A stretch of 60,397 bases of DNA from Patescibacteria group bacterium (GTDB lineage: Bacteria > Patescibacteriota > Patescibacteriia > Patescibacteriales > UBA12465), in contig JBAZKQ010000003.1 of the NCBI GenBank assembly GCA_041650715.1, forward strand, positions 1 through 60,397, in the 5' to 3' direction. The notes beneath the pieces were generated by a model. It saw only the letters and a list, made by a program, of their open reading frames with translations, did no database searches and was not told the origin of the DNA. Of the stretch, positions 31,202 to 37,903 are shown piece by piece (positions within the stretch are counted from its first letter, which is position 1; each line of letters begins with the position of its first letter). A program made the position numbers and the translations under genes.

Positions 31202-32746
31202 TTACTCAATTTTCGGACGGTATTGTAGGGACTCGGCTAAATGAGACGCCAAAATATCTTCCGAGGCGGCTAAATCGGCAATGGTGCGGGCTATTTTTAG
31301 GACCCGAAAATATGAGCGAGAGGAAAGATTGTAGTGCTCGCTTGCTATTTTTAATAAGGACTGAGCGTGAGCATCGAGACGGCAAAAAGAGCGGGTCAAA
31401 TGACTCGACATTTCCGAGTTGAGTAAACAGGGATGATTTTTAAAACGAAGTGCCTGGATGCGCCGCGCATTTTCGACCCGCGCTTTAACGGATGACGAGC
31501 TTTCTGATCGTGCTTCTGTATTTAGTTTTTCGAAATCGACACGCGGAACATGGAGATGAAGATCAATCCGGTCAAGAATGGGACCGGAAAGACGGCGACG
31601 GTAACTTAAAATTTGGGGTTCCCGACAGCGGCAGGGAGTTTTCTTATCACCCAGATACCCGCAAGGACAGGGATTCATGGCGGCAATTAAGATAAAACGG
31701 GAGGGAAATTTTAAAGAGCCGGCCGCACGGCTGATATTTATTTGGCCCTCCTCAAGTGGCTGGCGTAAATTTTCTAAAGCCAGGCGCGAGAATTCCGGAA
31801 ATTCATCAAGAAATAAAACACCGCGATGCGCCAAGGAAATTTCCCCGGGGCGGGGCCAAGTGCCCCCGCCGATTAAGGCGATTCCCGATGCGCTGTGATG
31901 GGGCGCGCGAAAGGGGCGCTCATAAATTAAAGCTAAGTTTCTTCTTAATTCGCCGGCAATGCTATAAATATTAGTTACTTCTAAAATTTCTTCGCTCGAG
32001 AGTGATGGTAATATCCCCGGAACGGCGCGGGCGAGTAGTGTTTTGCCCGATCCGGGCGGGCCGATTAAAAGTAAATTATGGCCACCGGCAGCCGCGATTT
32101 CAAGAGCCCGCTTAGCTTTCTCATGCCCCCTAATTAGAGCAAAATCAATTTCTTGCAGGGGCTGCTGGGTTTTGTGTTCCGCGTGAGTGAGCAGTGATAA
32201 ATCGTCTGGGCCAAATAAGTGTGGCTCAATTAAAGTTTTACTTTTAAAGTGGCCGATTAATTGGCCAAGCGATGTGATAGGATAAATTTTTAGGTCGGCA
32301 ATCAGGCGTGCTTCGGCCATATTTTCTTCGGGGATAAATAGATTAGCAATGCCCGCCAGTTTCGTTTTTTGGCCAATCGCTAAAATTCCTTTAACGGGAC
32401 GCACTTCGCCATTTAAAGATAATTCACCGACAATTAAACTATTTTTAAAATCATGGGAAAATTTATTTTTTAGGGCAAGGATACTTAAAGCGATCGGCAG
32501 ATCGTAAGCTGCTCCATGTTTTTTTACTTCAGCCGGCGCGAGGTTGACGGTAATTTTTCGTTTGGGAAATTCATGGCCGCAATTGCGCAAAGCGCTTTTT
32601 ACCCGTTCTTTGGCCTCAGAGGTTGAGGCATCGGGCAAGCCAACGATAGCAATTTGTCCGAAATCGCCGCCGCCCGAGTCTGCTTCGACGACGATTAGTT
32701 CCGCCTCGAGCCCAATCAGGGCGGCCGAGATGATTTTACTTGGCAT
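31202..32746 (-). CDS. comM: YifB/ComM-family Mg-chelatase-like AAA+ ATPase
   Basis: Lon-like N-domain, Walker A GPPGSGKT, Walker B VLFLDEF, C-terminal ChlI-like domain. Confidence 0.9.
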   Translation of the reverse strand: MPSKIISAALIGLEAELIVVEADSGGGDFGQIAIVGLPDASTSEAKERVKSALRNCGHEFPKRKITVNLAPAEVKKHGAAYDLPIALSILALKNKFSHDFKNSLIVGELSLNGEVRPVKGILAIGQKTKLAGIANLFIPEENMAEARLIADLKIYPITSLGQLIGHFKSKTLIEPHLFGPDDLSLLTHAEHKTQQPLQEIDFALIRGHEKAKRALEIAAAGGHNLLLIGPPGSGKTLLARAVPGILPSLSSEEILEVTNIYSIAGELRRNLALIYERPFRAPHHSASGIALIGGGTWPRPGEISLAHRGVLFLDEFPEFSRLALENLRQPLEEGQINISRAAGSLKFPSRFILIAAMNPCPCGYLGDKKTPCRCREPQILSYRRRLSGPILDRIDLHLHVPRVDFEKLNTEARSESSSSVKARVENARRIQALRFKNHPCLLNSEMSSHLTRSFCRLDAHAQSLLKIASEHYNLSSRSYFRVLKIARTIADLAASEDILASHLAESLQYRPKIE

Positions 32747-32858
32747 AGCGTAAGAGCTTTATTTAAATTAAATAGAAAACAAAAAACCGCTCTGGTGAGC
32801 GGTTTCTATTTTAGCAGATGACTAATAAAAATATTCTAAACTAAATCTAAAGGTTTTT

Positions 32859-35800
32859 TTATTTTTTTATTTCGTCCAGTTTGACGCTGAGCAATTTGCT
32901 GACGCCATTTTCTTCCATAGTAACGCCGTAGAGAATACTGGCGCGGCGCATGGACGCGCGATTATGGGTAATAACGATAAACTGGGTTTTATTCGATAAG
33001 TCATCAAGAATTTTCGCTAAGCGTTCCGAATTAGCCTCGTCAAGCGCGGCATCAGCTTCATCAAGGACCACGAAAGGAGAGGGGTTGGCACTGATAATGG
33101 CACTAATTAAAGCAATCGCGGTCAGAGCGCGCTCACCGCCCGAAAGCATAGAGACCGCCTGAATTTTTTTACCGGGAGGAATCGCCGATATTTCAATTCC
33201 GGCTAGACCAATGGCGTTATGCTTGCGGAGAAATTTAATCTTTTTCAGTCTTTCGTCACTTTCGTTTTTAATCGCTGCTTCTGACGGAGTCAGTCCGGCA
33301 GCCAGCGGATTATTAGCTTGGCCGCTGGCTTGGTTATTTTTAGCTTCTTCTTTCTCGATATCTTCGAGCATTACTTTAGAAATTTTGGCCGCACCGCCGT
33401 TGAAAAGAATTTTAAAATACTCATTGAATTTTTCGGAAATAACTTTGAATTCAGAATCAAATTTCCCCTTAATGTTCATGTCGAGCTCATAAATTATTTC
33501 TTCGAGCGATTTTATGGCTTGATGCAGATCATCAGTCTGCTTGCTTAAAAAATCATGACGTTCTTTTGTTTCGGCAAATTCTTTTTCGGTTTCCGGATCG
33601 ATACCGCCGATTTGTTCCAATTGTAATTTATTATTATTGATAGATTTTTGCCAGCGTTCAATTTCTATCTCGGCCGTTTCTATTTTATGATTTTTGATGT
33701 CAGAAATGTTTAACTCGTCGTTTCTAATATTCGCTTCAAGATCTTCTAATTTTGTTTCCTGGCGAGTCGCTTCTATTTTTAAATTATTCAAATCGGATAA
33801 AACAGAATTAAGTTCCAGCTGCAGCGCCTGAATCGCTTTTTGATATTCAAACATTTGACTCTTTTCTTTCTCTTGAGCAGCGTTAAAAGCACCGAGTTTA
33901 TTTTCTAAAGTTTTAATTTCTTCGTTTAAAACATCAAGTCTTTGGTTCAGCTCTTTTTTCTCGCTTTCAATCCCGCTTGCATCAAATTTAAGTTGGCTCT
34001 TAGCCAGCTTAATTTTAATATCAGAAACCTCTTTTTCCAGCTGGATTTTTTTAGTTTGCAGCAGGCGTCGCCGTTCGCGCAAAGAGGAAGCTTTAAGGCG
34101 GGCATCGTTAATTTTAATATCCAAGGCCTGGCGTTTGTCCAGCCACTCATTTAGAGATGAATTAAGTTTTAAATTATCCTGTTCTTTTTCCAGGAGATTT
34201 ATTTTTTTGTTTAATTCCTTTTTCTCCGCTTCAAGCTGGCTGGCGTCGAATTTAACTTGGGCTTTTTCTAATTTGCCGCGAATATCATTAAGCTCGCGCG
34301 CGAGCTGTAATTCTTTTTCCTCTAAAAGGCGGAGTCGTTCGTTAATCATTGAAAGCCGGAGTCGTTCGCTGCTGAGATTTTCCTGTGTATTCTGTTTAGA
34401 TTCAGTGAGAGAAATTATTTCAGATTGGATTTCTTGAATTTTATTTAATTTATCGTCGTCGCGACCGCTGATGAGTTTGGTAATTTTTTTCTGAAAATCG
34501 GATTTAGCTTCCCCGATCAGTTTTTTTATTTTAGACAAATCGGTTTCCGTTTCAATCATCTCTAATTGGCCGAGAAAAACGTCAATCAATTGGCTTATCT
34601 CCTCGTTCTGCCCCTCGCTCTGTCCGGATTTTTTTAAATCTCGATTGAGAGTTTCTAATTCCTTATTGAGACGATTGAGATCATCCTGAATCTTGCCGAG
34701 TTTTTGTTCACTGGCCTTTTCGTCAACGCGATTATTTTCCGATTTGAGTGCGTTTATTTCCGCCTTTAATTTTATGAGCTCAGCATTTAATTCCTCGTTT
34801 TTATTGTTTAGCCAGGAAACATCAAATTGCCCCTGGACTTCAAGATTGGCCTCTAAAACTGCTTCCAGTTTCGAAACCTGTTTAAAATATAAAGTTTTTT
34901 CCGTTTCTAATTTTTCAATTTGATAGCGCGTTTCATTAACTTTTTTAATCTCGTGGTTGACCTGGGTAAGTTCGACGTTCAGATTATCCTCGTCTTTTTG
35001 TCCGTTAGCACTGTCGAGTAAAATAATTTCTGCGCTGATTGATTCGAGCTCGGCGTTTAGTTCGCCCTGTTTATTATTTAACCAGGAAACATCGAATTGT
35101 CCCTGCGATTCTAATTGAATTTCGAGCTCTGCCTGAAGTTTCGCGAGCTGTTTTTGCAGTTGGTTGCGAGAATTTTCAAATTCCTTGAGACGGGGCTGAA
35201 GATCGCTCATTTCTTGAAAGTTGTTCGTATTCCGAATTTTGTTCAAATCATCATTAAGTTTGCCGAGCCGGCCTTCCATTTCAATTTTACTTTTTTCTAA
35301 ATCCAAAAAGCGGTTATTTGCACTATTTAATTTTTGATTAATATCCTGCCACAGAAAGCCGTAGTAGTTTAATTGAACAGCCTGTAAGTCCCCGGCAATT
35401 TCATCGCGGCGTTTCAGTTTTTCTACTTGGCGCGTTAAACTTTTTAGCCGCGGTCTGATTTCGGCGAGCAGCATCTCGACTTGCTGGAGGTTTTCGTAGC
35501 TTGATTCTAATTTGTTTAAGGCGGAGTCGCGTTTAATTTGAAATTGTTTAACGCCGGTCGCTTCGTCAAAAAAATCTTTGCGTTCGGCCGCCGAAGTATT
35601 CAAAAAATTTTCCACCATGCCCTGGCCGATGACGCTATAGGTTTTTTGTCCGAAGTTGGCTTTCGCGAGCAGCATCTGAATATCGGCGAGACGGACGCGA
35701 TGGCCATTGAGCAGGTATTCGCTTTCGCCGCTGCGATAAATGCGGCGCGTAATAACTATTTCCGCGCAGCTCAAAATCATCTGGTCGAGATCGCTTTCGC

Positions 35801-36125
35801 TTTCAATGGTTTCCGGTGCGGCCGCTTTGTTTTTGGCGGCCACGGAATTATTTAAACATAGAGAAACCTCCGCCATACCGAGCTGGCCCTTTTTATCGGA
35901 ACCAGAAAAAATCACATCCTCGCTTTTTTTACCGCGGATGGTTTTTAGACTTTGTTCACCGAGGGCCCAACGGATAGAATCGGCGACATTTGATTTTCCG
36001 GACCCGTTCGGGCCGACGATGGCGGTCAGGCCTCTTTTTTGGCCGTCGAGCAGTCCGGAGAAGATTAATTTATTTTTATTGGCGAAGGATTTAAAGCCTT
36101 GGATTTCTAGTCTTTCTAAATACAT
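32859..36125 (-). CDS. smc: SMC chromosome-condensation ATPase, hinge not recognisable
   Basis: N-head LEIQGFKSF...GPNGSGKSN...VIGQGMV. C-head LSGGERALTAIAL, VLDEADAALD. ~760 aa of continuous coiled coil between the heads. Confidence 0.85.
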   Translation of the reverse strand: MYLERLEIQGFKSFANKNKLIFSGLLDGQKRGLTAIVGPNGSGKSNVADSIRWALGEQSLKTIRGKKSEDVIFSGSDKKGQLGMAEVSLCLNNSVAAKNKAAAPETIESESDLDQMILSCAEIVITRRIYRSGESEYLLNGHRVRLADIQMLLAKANFGQKTYSVIGQGMVENFLNTSAAERKDFFDEATGVKQFQIKRDSALNKLESSYENLQQVEMLLAEIRPRLKSLTRQVEKLKRRDEIAGDLQAVQLNYYGFLWQDINQKLNSANNRFLDLEKSKIEMEGRLGKLNDDLNKIRNTNNFQEMSDLQPRLKEFENSRNQLQKQLAKLQAELEIQLESQGQFDVSWLNNKQGELNAELESISAEIILLDSANGQKDEDNLNVELTQVNHEIKKVNETRYQIEKLETEKTLYFKQVSKLEAVLEANLEVQGQFDVSWLNNKNEELNAELIKLKAEINALKSENNRVDEKASEQKLGKIQDDLNRLNKELETLNRDLKKSGQSEGQNEEISQLIDVFLGQLEMIETETDLSKIKKLIGEAKSDFQKKITKLISGRDDDKLNKIQEIQSEIISLTESKQNTQENLSSERLRLSMINERLRLLEEKELQLARELNDIRGKLEKAQVKFDASQLEAEKKELNKKINLLEKEQDNLKLNSSLNEWLDKRQALDIKINDARLKASSLRERRRLLQTKKIQLEKEVSDIKIKLAKSQLKFDASGIESEKKELNQRLDVLNEEIKTLENKLGAFNAAQEKEKSQMFEYQKAIQALQLELNSVLSDLNNLKIEATRQETKLEDLEANIRNDELNISDIKNHKIETAEIEIERWQKSINNNKLQLEQIGGIDPETEKEFAETKERHDFLSKQTDDLHQAIKSLEEIIYELDMNIKGKFDSEFKVISEKFNEYFKILFNGGAAKISKVMLEDIEKEEAKNNQASGQANNPLAAGLTPSEAAIKNESDERLKKIKFLRKHNAIGLAGIEISAIPPGKKIQAVSMLSGGERALTAIALISAIISANPSPFVVLDEADAALDEANSERLAKILDDLSNKTQFIVITHNRASMRRASILYGVTMEENGVSKLLSVKLDEIKK

Positions 36126-36216
36126 ATTTAGCCCGTTTTAAAGCTCCCTTTTTGATTTAAACTTTTTCCTATATAATACTATAATAAAGGATATAGACTA
36201 AAATGACAAATTGATT

Positions 36217-36786
36217 ATGATTATTTCATTGAGCGGGGCGCCGGGTTCGGGCAAGAGTACGATCGCACAAATGTTGGCTGAGAAATATGGCTGGCCGCGC
36301 TATTATATGGGCGGCTTGCGGCGTGAGGCAGCCAAAAAAAGAGGAATGACCTTAGCAGAGTACAATAAGTTGGGCGAAAGCGATCCGATGACAGACCAAG
36401 AGGTTGATTATTACCAGCGCGATTTAGGGCAGGCAGAGGATAATTTCATTATCGAAGGTCGGACCTCCTGGCACTTTATCCCTCAGTCTTTGAAGATTTA
36501 TCTCGACGTCAGCCCGGAGGCGGGGGCAAAGCGAATTTTTGGCAATTTACAGCGAAAAAATGATAGAAATGAGGATAAAGGCCTGAATACCTGGCAGGAT
36601 GTCCAAAAGAGTAATTCCGAGCGTCTGGAGAGCGACAGGACGCGCTACAAGCAGTATTATGGGATTGAGGTTTATGATCACGCTAATTATGATTATTATC
36701 TGGATACAACTGAAATGAGCCCGCAGGCCGTTTTCCAGGCAGTTTCTGAATATGTGGCCGCCAGCCTTGACAAGAGGAATAATTAA
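36217..36786 (+). CDS. Cytidylate-kinase-like (archaeal-type CMP kinase family) P-loop kinase
   Basis: ISLSGAPGSGKSTIAQMLAEKYGW...IIEGR. Confidence 0.65.
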   Translation: MIISLSGAPGSGKSTIAQMLAEKYGWPRYYMGGLRREAAKKRGMTLAEYNKLGESDPMTDQEVDYYQRDLGQAEDNFIIEGRTSWHFIPQSLKIYLDVSPEAGAKRIFGNLQRKNDRNEDKGLNTWQDVQKSNSERLESDRTRYKQYYGIEVYDHANYDYYLDTTEMSPQAVFQAVSEYVAASLDKRNN

Positions 36787-36871
36787 TTATAACATTAGAC
36801 AAGATTTGCCTTATTAAATAAGTATTTTCAAACGAGATTTAACCAGTCTCGTTTATATAATTTTAAACAAT

Positions 36872-37198
36872 ATGGTTGAGACAAAATTAGAATTAAAGCC
36901 AGGAATGACTATCCGGGTTTATCAGAAAATCAAGGAATTGAATTCTAAGGGTGAAGAAAAAGAGAGAGTTCAATATTTTGAAGGCATGATAATCGCGCGT
37001 AAGCATAATAAAGAAAAAGGATCGACTATTACTGTTCGTAAAGTCTCCGATGGCATTGGCGTGGAAAAGATTTTCCCGTTGAATTTACCGACGATCACCA
37101 AAATTGAAATTAAGAAGGTGGCCGAAGTAAGACGAGCTAAACTTTATTACCTGAGAGAAGGCTATAAGAAAAGATTAAAAGAAAAGGTCGTCAAATAG
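36872..37198 (+). CDS. rplS: 50S ribosomal protein L19
   Basis: PGMTIRVYQKIKE...ERVQYFEGMIIARK...ITVRKVSDGIGVEKIFPLN...RRAKLYYLR. Confidence 0.9.
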   Translation: MVETKLELKPGMTIRVYQKIKELNSKGEEKERVQYFEGMIIARKHNKEKGSTITVRKVSDGIGVEKIFPLNLPTITKIEIKKVAEVRRAKLYYLREGYKKRLKEKVVK

Positions 37199-37215
37199 AC
37201 GACTTTTTCTCGTTC

Positions 37216-37302
37216 GGGCGGATGGTGAAATTGGTAGACACGCAAGCTTGAGGGGCTTGTGGCCGCAAGGCCGTGGAGGTTCAAATCCTCTTTCGCCCAC
37301 CA
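37216..37302 (+). tRNA. tRNA-Leu (anticodon GAG), CCA encoded
   Basis: 87-nt class II cloverleaf: acceptor GGGCGGA/TTCGCCC, anticodon loop TTGAGGG, 15-nt variable arm, ends ACCA. Confidence 0.85.
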
Positions 37303-37328
37303 TCTATTAAGTTAGGAATAATGCATTG

Positions 37329-37402
37329 GGGCGCATAGCTCAGCTGGTTAGAGCACTTCGTTTACACCGAAGGGGTCCAGGGTTCGAATCCTTGTGCGCC
37401 CA
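37329..37402 (+). tRNA. tRNA-Val (anticodon TAC)
   Basis: 74-nt cloverleaf: acceptor GGGCGCA/TGCGCCC, anticodon loop TTTACAC, T-arm CAGGG-TTCGAAT-CCTTG. Confidence 0.9.
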
Positions 37403-37404
37403 CA

Positions 37405-37438
37405 AATAAAAAGAAGCCGACCGGCTTCTTTTTATTTA
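37405..37438. terminator. Long-stem terminator after tRNA-Val
   Basis: AAATAAAAAGAAGCCG-AC-CGGCTTCTTTTTATTT. Confidence 0.75.
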
Positions 37439-37474
37439 CTTTATCTTTTAAAAGAAATCAGATAAACTAAAAAT

Positions 37475-37903
37475 ATGTTAAAGATAGTAACAAACAATGA
37501 AAAAGAAACCTATGACCTGGGGTGCAAACTCGCAAGCCAGCTTAAAGGTGGCGAATTTTTAGCCCTCTGTGGCGACTTAGGCGCGGGCAAAACTAAATTT
37601 TTGCAGGGCTTGGCTTACGGTCTGGGCGTTAAGGGTCGAGTAAATAGTCCTACTTTTAATATTCTTAAACTCTATAGAACAAACTCCACTCAAGAAATAA
37701 AAAGATTTTGCCATATTGATACCTACCGTCTCCATTCGGAAAAAGATTTATTGTCTCTTGGTATTAATGAATTGATTGAAGACCCAGCAACCGTCATTGC
37801 CGTGGAATGGGCCGAAAAGATCAAAAAAATTTGGCCAAAAAAAACTATCGTTATCAGCATAAAACATTTAGCCGAAAATAAAAGGGAAATAAGCATTAGA
37901 TAA
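37475..37903 (+). CDS. tsaE: tRNA t6A biosynthesis ATPase TsaE
   Basis: LCGDLGAGKTKFLQGLAYGLGV...SPTFNIL. Confidence 0.85.
   Translation: MLKIVTNNEKETYDLGCKLASQLKGGEFLALCGDLGAGKTKFLQGLAYGLGVKGRVNSPTFNILKLYRTNSTQEIKRFCHIDTYRLHSEKDLLSLGINELIEDPATVIAVEWAEKIKKIWPKKTIVISIKHLAENKREISIR

Follow-up and report, generated by a model that had tools for sequence, protein, structure and literature searches.

We observed that the chromosome-organising Smc of a tiny Patescibacteria (Falkowbacteria-like) bacterium has no detectable hinge, a small, predicted helical cap taking its place, and that both strands of its long arm carry one extra, matching block of about 90 residues. The gene was found in a 60,397-nt window (the whole stretch of DNA that was analysed; contig JBAZKQ010000003.1 of assembly GCA_041650715.1), and the coordinates below refer to this window. 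The first-pass annotation had proposed an SMC without a recognisable hinge and with a compensated extension of both arms. The observation was confirmed and its interpretation was supported, although the pairing of the duplicated blocks is inferred from indirect evidence. The annotation, made from the sequence alone, could not show that hinge loss is nearly phylum-wide and not a peculiarity of this gene, or that the duplications are a family-level trait that has also been lost again in a matched way.

Identity of the protein and its partners

The open reading frame at 32859..36125 (-) encodes a protein of 1088 aa plus a stop codon. It scored 582.4 bits against the Smc equivalog profile TIGR02168 (SMC_prok_B), above the curated cut-off of 567.35, in three stretches, the first of which covers query 2-500 against profile 1-496. 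The Pfam family SMC_N spanned aa 2-1077 (3e-45). The N-terminal half of the ATPase head (aa 1 to about 175; 35601..36125 (-)) contains FKSF at aa 11, the Walker A motif GPNGSGKSN at aa 38 and the Q-loop GQG at aa 167-169. The C-terminal half (aa about 909-1088; 32862..33401 (-)) contains the signature LSGGE at aa 994, Walker B at aa 1018-1023 and DEADAALD at aa 1022. The Walker A, Q-loop, signature and Walker B residues are invariant in 60 orthologues.

A phmmer search of PDB sequences identified the B. subtilis Smc head constructs 5xg3 (5xg3_A, 2e-93, query 1-234) and 3zgx (3.5e-92), and the best solved relatives are B. subtilis and Geobacillus Smc heads. The head and joint of the AlphaFold2 (AF2) model matched 5xg3_B with a TMt of 0.87, and 5xei was also among the fold matches. 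There is only one match to this protein in its own genome. Genes for ScpA (2.1e-21; 503098-503751 (-)) and ScpB (5.5e-41; 502573-503040 (-)), both over their cut-offs, lie adjacent on contig 1 of the genome, and ParB is also present. We concluded that this is the single Smc of the organism's Smc-ScpAB condensin. Upstream of smc we noted a promoter-like site at 36181..36209 (-) with 10 of 12 consensus matches, although the count of such sites in the region is not above that of shuffled sequences, and just after the stop codon a terminator-like hairpin at 32782..32807 (-) with an 11-pair stem followed by a T run. Both are consensus matches only.

The apex in place of the hinge

Next, we searched for the hinge. 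No match to SMC_hinge (PF06470) was found in the protein at E<=10, and none was found at E<=1 in the 98.4%-complete genome. We also built a hinge HMM from six hinge-bearing Smcs of the same class; it scored those six at 4e-79 to 1.8e-92, but none of 81 hinge-less Patescibacteria Smcs scored better than E 0.64. AF2 predicted only helices between aa 193 and 908 in a full-length model of moderate quality (pLDDT 74, pTM 0.43). The first-pass annotation had described this arm as uninterrupted coiled coil, which is not correct, as the model shows discrete helix breaks at aa 340-343, 431-434, 500-506, 526-529, 552-558, 622-628 and 710-716, among others.

The predicted cap (aa 500-558; 34452..34628 (-)) consists of a loop (500-506), a helix (507-525), a turn (526-529), a second helix (530-551) and a loop (552-558), so that about 50 residues, two short conserved helices, join the arm ends. 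Its hydrophobic positions and helix lengths are conserved, and it aligns opposite the about 150-aa hinge of hinge-bearing relatives. In a more confident model of the isolated fragment (pLDDT 84, pTM 0.69), the apex and the arm ends are folded as an up-down four-helix bundle. A Foldseek search of the apex model against the PDB gave no match at E<=0.001. VIA-align wide returned only generic up-down four-helix bundles (TTYH3, Z 12.6; McpS 2yfa_A, Z 12.4, rmsd 1.9 over 122) and designed bundles, within the range regarded as common for helical bundles. No SMC hinge, Rad50 hook or MukB hinge chain was among these matches, which does not exclude them. A profile of the apex alignment found only coiled coils and designed bundles among PDB sequences (best E 1.7e-4). 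A complex prediction using two copies of aa 450-610 with our own alignment gave no answer (score 0.00, mark 0.42), which says nothing for or against cap-mediated dimerisation.

We then asked how widespread the loss of the hinge is. Hinge matches over the cut-off were found in 0/101 genomes of the order, 11/201 of the class and 6/301 of the phylum, whereas 118 of the same 301 phylum genomes carry Smc at E<=1e-20. The hinge replacement is thus shared by nearly all Smc-bearing Patescibacteria sampled. The hinge-bearing Smcs of the same class (871 and about 1009-1026 aa) keep a roughly 150-aa Pfam hinge (E 1e-33 to 1e-23) on single-module arms, and their heads and arms are colinear with those of the present protein, including the N-arm D/N-x-S/T-W-L/M break motif and a C-arm break.

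Matched duplications in the two strands of the arm

As a BLASTP self-comparison reported only the identity hit, we tested the repeats by Smith-Waterman alignment against shuffled sequences. The N-arm units (aa 300-395 versus 390-485) scored 179 (z 21.6) and the C-arm units (aa 570-665 versus 658-755) scored 174 (z 15.9), with 0 of 300 shuffles as high in either case, while cross-arm controls gave z of 1.7-6.3. A repeat of this test gave z of 21.1 and 19.5. Two N-arm 20-mers lie at aa 341 and 431 (offset 90) and two C-arm 15-mers at aa 625 and 713 (offset 88). Ungapped identity is 37/90 aa and 34/88 aa, but only 52% and 50% at the DNA level, with longest exact runs of 12 and 8 nt. The copies are therefore old and cannot be an assembly artefact, and the core motif has been kept through synonymous differences.

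N-arm unit 1 (aa 300-389; 34959..35228 (-); the phase of the boundaries is arbitrary) contains the helix break at aa 340-343 and the motif QGQFDVSWLNNK, and N-arm unit 2 (aa 390-479; 34689..34958 (-)) contains the break at aa 431-434 and the second QGQFDVSWLNNK. C-arm unit 1 (aa 575-662; 34140..34403 (-)) contains the break at aa 622-628 (KFDAS) and C-arm unit 2 (aa 663-750; 33876..34139 (-)) the break at aa 710-716 (KFDAS). The breaks are mirrored, as 341.5+713, 432.5+625 and 503+555 all give about 1055-1058. By this register, N-arm unit 2 is predicted to lie opposite C-arm unit 1, and N-arm unit 1 opposite C-arm unit 2. This pairing is inferred from the mirrored breaks and from the concerted indels described below.

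Short orthologues lack exactly one block of about 88-92 aa in the N arm and one 88-aa block in the C arm, at about positions 380-476 and 605-692 of the query. Among 61 species genomes, which were chosen by us and are not a random sample, 41 were long, 20 were short and none was mixed; one genome (981 aa) had a different 87-aa gap next to the apex. We built trees with FastTree and with the quick mode of treekit with SH-aLRT. The ML tree on 685 non-repeat columns needs at least four state changes, also when only starred branches are used, and an AU test rejected a single split (p 0.0001). Copy-specific similarity showed that the duplication predates the clade holding the ten short forms of this genus, so these lost one unit from both arms. 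For example, at locus L004 the N1~N1 similarity is 0.63 against 0.38 for N1~N2, and locus L049 of another genus gives 0.60 against 0.43. For the deepest long-form clades the orthology of the copies is unresolved, so gains and losses cannot all be told apart.

Three metagenome proteins carry only one of the two duplications: P0083 lacks that of the N arm, and P0089 and P0095 lack that of the C arm. P0083 and P0089 are 906/906 identical elsewhere, and their C-arm copies share 27 identical residues. As these proteins sit inside the long-form clade next to the query, we did not regard them as evolutionary intermediates; they may represent assembly collapse or transient deletion variants.

The step is also not always about 90 aa. 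Other Patescibacteria families show N-arm repeats of 77 and 82 aa (z 11-12) with weak C-arm partners of 73 and 81 aa (z about 5-6, at the cross-arm background level), and there are weak 110/104-aa repeats as well. Matching on both strands is therefore better supported than a step of exactly one period.

Taken with good confidence, the data are best explained by two changes to a canonical bacterial Smc. First, the globular alpha/beta hinge was deleted, leaving about 50 residues. Second, within the Falkowbacteria-like family, the arm was lengthened by tandem duplication of one about 90-aa module on the ascending strand and one about 88-aa module on the descending strand, each carrying one helix break. 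If the two strands pair antiparallel, as predicted, the matched insertions keep the register. They would add about 13 nm, roughly one coiled-coil superhelical period, so that the head-to-tip phase is kept, and would move the arm from the short natural length class (about 240-250 aa) to the canonical one (about 330-340 aa, compared with 344 in B. subtilis Smc). That this period is what is selected is an inference. As for dimerisation, we slightly favour cap-to-cap and/or arm-arm association giving the usual closed ring; the absence of distal dimerisation is less likely but possible, and some other arrangement is less likely still.

Alternative explanations and significance

Of the alternatives, all of which we consider very unlikely, independent and neutral duplication in the two arms survives best. 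Much of the co-occurrence is inherited, since related genomes are not independent, and the three metagenome proteins show one duplication without the other. However, at least four independent long/short transitions changed both arms together, one of them a secondary loss of one unit from each arm, no mixed state occurred in the 61 species genomes, the block sizes are 88-92 and 88 aa, and the breaks are mirrored.

It is also improbable that the protein is another SMC-like ATPase with a non-hinge apex, of the Rad50/SbcC, RecN or MksB/JetC type. Like Rad50 (PMC5344682), and probably RecN, it combines an ABC-type head with a coiled coil that ends without an SMC hinge; it gave weak matches to Rad50 NCBIfam models (E 9e-09 and weaker), and Foldseek listed Rad50, MukB and JetC chains among many SMC hits. 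But the Rad50 models scored only 26-34 bits against cut-offs of 700-1087, no cysteine occurs in aa 120-1088 and hence there is no CxxC hook, and the partner genes are ScpA and ScpB, not a nuclease. The MukB and JetC chains appeared only as low-TM general SMC fold matches (TMq 0.19), although no dedicated MksB or JetC profile was run. The Smc score above the cut-off, the matched Smc head and joint and the colinear hinge-bearing orthologues of the same class also argue against this possibility.

A hinge too divergent for profile HMMs, at about aa 480-600, is similarly doubtful. A MAFFT alignment placed a G-rich loop (SG.SGG) and a 'K.IKGEFRR'-like stretch of some hinge-less relatives opposite the N- and C-terminal borders of the hinge in hinge-bearing relatives, and these could be remnants. 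However, only about 50 residues lie between the arm ends, the profile searches found nothing, and both models are purely helical there. An assembly or gene-calling artefact is extremely unlikely, even though tandem repeats can be mis-assembled and P0083 and P0089 look like such cases, as the copies are only about 50% identical in DNA, the reading frame is open throughout, and the same architecture recurs in over 100 database proteins at 60-91% identity and in dozens of independent genomes, including single-contig ones.

The closest experimental counterparts are the engineered B. subtilis Smc variants of Bürmann et al. 2017 (Mini-Smc, extended BsSp Smc and Smc(Zh); PMC5344682). In that study, Smc worked only at arm lengths with a 91-aa period, natural arm lengths had modes at 238, 341 and 515 aa, and the hinge fold could be swapped for a Rad50 zinc hook, so that it is dispensable if another dimerisation element is present. 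The proteins described here are natural, their long and short forms differ by 88-92 aa per strand, and their apex has no known dimerisation element. The survey of natural sequences in that study was seeded with hinge alignments, so hinge-less Smcs could not appear in it. We found no paper describing a hinge-less Smc in Patescibacteria/CPR, or natural arm duplications, in searches of open-access papers and bioRxiv preprints.

A more speculative possibility, which we consider unlikely, is that most Patescibacteria run Smc-ScpAB without any distal dimerisation domain, the two Smc rods being held together only by head engagement, the ScpA bridge and perhaps side-by-side arm contacts. A closed Smc 'S compartment' and the hinge would then not be needed for bacterial condensin function, while the superhelical phase of the arm would still be under selection.

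The hinge is treated as a hallmark of SMC proteins and is assigned roles in dimerisation, DNA binding and gate function. A large bacterial radiation whose only Smc lacks it, while keeping ScpA, ScpB and ParB, is a natural test of which hinge functions are essential. The matched duplication of about 90 aa, lost again in both strands at once, is an evolutionary counterpart of the engineered finding on arm length, and it gives natural pairs of long and short forms at up to about 70% identity in the head regions.

The smc gene, its partner genes and the arm duplications

The gene is one long ORF at 32859..36125 on the minus strand, which encodes a protein of 1088 aa. Pfam searches gave a single SMC_N match spanning aa 2–1077 (3e-45), and no SMC_hinge match was obtained even at E<=10. 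The NCBIfam Smc equivalog TIGR02168 scored 582.4 bits, just above its cut-off of 567.35, whereas the Rad50 models scored 26–34 bits against cut-offs of 700–1087. The closest solved sequences are the B. subtilis Smc head constructs, 5xg3 (2e-93) and 3zgx (3.5e-92), and the head-plus-joint part of the AF2 model superposed on 5xg3_B with a TMt of 0.87.

The genome (957,592 bp in 3 contigs, 98.4% complete) has one match to this protein. It also has adjacent ScpA and ScpB genes on contig 1 and a ParB, and the database names of close relatives read Falkowbacteria or Patescibacteria. The smc gene is flanked downstream by a ComM/YifB-type Mg-chelatase-like ATPase (31202–32746, minus strand), while a cytidylate-kinase-like gene, ribosomal protein L19 and TsaE lie divergently upstream (36211–37903, plus strand). 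This is an ordinary housekeeping context.

Next, we tested whether the duplications are real. The first-pass annotation had claimed an SMC without a recognisable hinge and with matched tandem duplications of about 90 aa in both coiled-coil arms, and every motif position that it gave was exact. The N-arm copies aligned with an SW score of 179 (z 21.6) and the C-arm copies with a score of 174 (z 15.9), and in neither case did any of 300 shuffles score as high, whereas the cross-arm controls gave z values of only 1.7–6.3. A repeat of this test yielded z values of 21.1 and 19.5. Ungapped identity between the copies is 37/90 and 34/88 residues, but at the DNA level it is only 52% and 50%, with longest exact runs of 12 and 8 nt. 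We also observed that the conserved cores (QGQFDVSWLNNK..ELNAEL and KFDAS..E.EKKELN) differ at synonymous sites. Therefore, we concluded that the duplications are old, that the motif is kept by selection rather than by recent gene conversion, and that an assembly artefact is excluded.

The helix-break motif of the N arm, D/N-[LIV]-[SAT]-[WY]-[LM], is present once per arm module, and hence twice in this protein, at 35082–35096 and 34812–34826 (aa 344–348 and 434–438). It is conserved from hinge-bearing to hinge-less Smcs of the class (Smc loci L019, L021–L024, L025, L028, L042 and L045).

Absence of a detectable hinge and its spread

Three lines of evidence beyond Pfam bear on the absence of the hinge. 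First, we built a hinge HMM from six hinge-bearing Smcs of the same class. This profile scored those six at 4e-79 to 1.8e-92 but, with all filters off, scored none of 81 hinge-less Smcs (61 from this order and 20 from across the phylum) better than E 0.64. Second, the hinge-bearing relatives align colinearly with the hinge-less ones, including the N-arm break motif, and their hinge of about 150 aa lies opposite about 50 residues in the hinge-less forms. Third, AF2 predicted helices only. The full-length model, made from a 60-row alignment (pLDDT 74.4, pTM 0.43), has only helices between aa 193 and 908, and its predicted apex consists of a loop at 500–506, a helix at 507–525, a turn at 526–529, a helix at 530–551 and a loop at 552–558. 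When the apex was modelled alone (aa 478–600, 54-row alignment), four helices were predicted (pLDDT 84.1, pTM 0.69), and the best structural neighbours of this model were generic up-down four-helix bundles. The two short helices have conserved lengths (21–24 and 20–23 aa) and conserved hydrophobic positions, and the cap is therefore a maintained module and not a linker.

We then monitored how widely the hinge is missing. PF06470 matches over the cut-off were found in 0 of 101 genomes of the order, 11 of 201 of the class and 6 of 301 of the phylum, while the control genomes gave hinge hits in 10–11 of 14. The eight weak hits in the order (E 0.02–0.19) are unconvincing, and the one among them that could be compared, in genome G110, lies on a different contig from the Smc of that genome. 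Likewise, a seventh hit in the phylum sample (E 6e-4) lies on a different contig from that genome's Smc. In the same phylum sample, 118 of 301 genomes have a TIGR02168 match at E<=1e-20, and all six hinge-positive genomes are among these 118. Hence, about 112 of the 118 Smc-bearing genomes sampled show no hinge. The remaining 183 of 301 genomes gave no TIGR02168 match at this threshold, and whole families were without one (e.g. 0/15, 0/14, 0/7). Many lineages may lack Smc altogether. Smc open frames elsewhere range from about 670 to about 1105 aa, and the Smc frame of one phylum member (G591:C8:8475-9539) has two in-frame TGA codons in a 1062-aa open frame, consistent with a lineage that reads TGA as a residue. 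Among the minority of class genomes that keep a normal Pfam hinge (loci L019–L024), one Smc (L020) is only 871 aa long, which implies very short arms.

Long and short forms among relatives

Orthologues fall into two forms, a long form of about 1056–1110 aa and a short form of about 882–925 aa. The short forms lack one block of 88–92 aa at about q380–476 (query numbering) and one block of 88 aa at q605–692. They differ by nothing else of that size in the arms, although smaller gaps lie in the head-side regions. We fetched 61 Smc genes of species-representative genomes, which were picked to cover genera and both forms and are therefore not a random sample. Of these, 41 have both blocks, 20 have neither, and none is mixed. 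One long form (L066, G608:C10:2400-6000; 981 aa) has a separate 87-aa gap next to the apex, at query aa 521–607, covering the second cap helix and the start of the C arm. That genome is 84% complete in 120 contigs, and this gap may be real or an artefact.

An ML tree on 685 columns outside the repeats needs at least four long/short changes, also when only branches with SH-aLRT >=95 are used, and the AU test rejected a tree with a single split (delta lnL 182.5, p 0.0001). The groups in this test were defined by the indels, but we had already seen a FastTree of the same rows. For the deepest long clades copy orthology is unresolved, so that we cannot say how many of the changes other than the loss within this genus described below are gains. 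Copy-specific similarity shows that the duplication is shared by descent across genera. In the Smc locus L004 the similarity of N1 to N1 is 0.63 against 0.38 for N1 to N2, and in L049, from another genus, these values are 0.60 against 0.43. The C copies behave likewise in L004, L006 and L008, whereas in L049 only the C2 copy is copy-specific (C1 to C1 0.45 against C1 to C2 0.44). The duplication therefore predates the clade that contains ten short forms of this genus (97* support), and those ten lost one unit from each arm.

Some results do not agree with a strict reading of matched, 90-aa steps. Three metagenome proteins that are close relatives of the query carry one duplication only: P0083 (994 aa) lacks the N-arm unit, and P0089 and P0095 (996 aa) lack the C-arm unit. 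P0083 and P0089 are identical at 906 of 906 shared positions, and their lineage has 27 identical residues between the C copies. Without read data, we take them as probably collapsed assemblies or transient deletion variants. In other Patescibacteria families, the long Smcs carry their own N-arm repeats of 77 aa (L083, genome G564; z 11.4) and 82 aa (L081, genome G401; z 12.3), but their C-arm partners of 73 and 81 aa reach z values of only 5.8 and 4.9, at the cross-arm background level. L075 and L076 (genomes G350 and G507) show weak 110/104-aa repeats. These observations suggest independent arm extensions with other step sizes; matched extension may be recurrent, but the step is not always 90 aa.

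Arm register, arm length and predicted mode of action

The helix breaks in the AF2 model pair up with a constant sum. The N break at 340–343 pairs with the C break at 710–716 (341.5+713), the N break at 431–434 with the C break at 622–628 (432.5+625), and the loop at 500–506 with the loop at 552–558 (503+555). For an antiparallel hairpin, this would place N unit 1 opposite C unit 2 and N unit 2 opposite C unit 1, which is an inference from the break positions and not from model coordinates.

It has been shown that B. subtilis Smc has a 344-aa arm and works only in length windows spaced by a 91-aa period, close to the superhelical period of about 99 aa, that natural prokaryotic arm lengths have modes at 238, 341 and 515 aa, and that the hinge could be replaced by a Rad50 zinc hook (Bürmann et al. 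2017, PMC5344682). The sequence survey in that study was seeded with hinge alignments. Measured from the end of the N head (about aa 175–193) to the cap loops and back to the C head (aa 908), the arm described here is roughly 310–350 aa per strand, and the short forms are about 89 aa less. These values, which are our estimates from DSSP boundaries, lie near the 341 and 238 modes. In the open-access literature searched, judging from listings and abstracts, we found no description of a hinge-less Smc in this phylum and none of natural matched arm duplications.

The above results show a canonical Smc head and joint, an arm homologous to that of Smc, the partner genes, no hinge, and matched arm modules. 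From these we infer that the complex still works as a condensin loaded at ParB sites, and that the matched modules keep the strand register and the head-to-tip phase. Distal closure, if any, would be by the cap or by arm–arm contacts.
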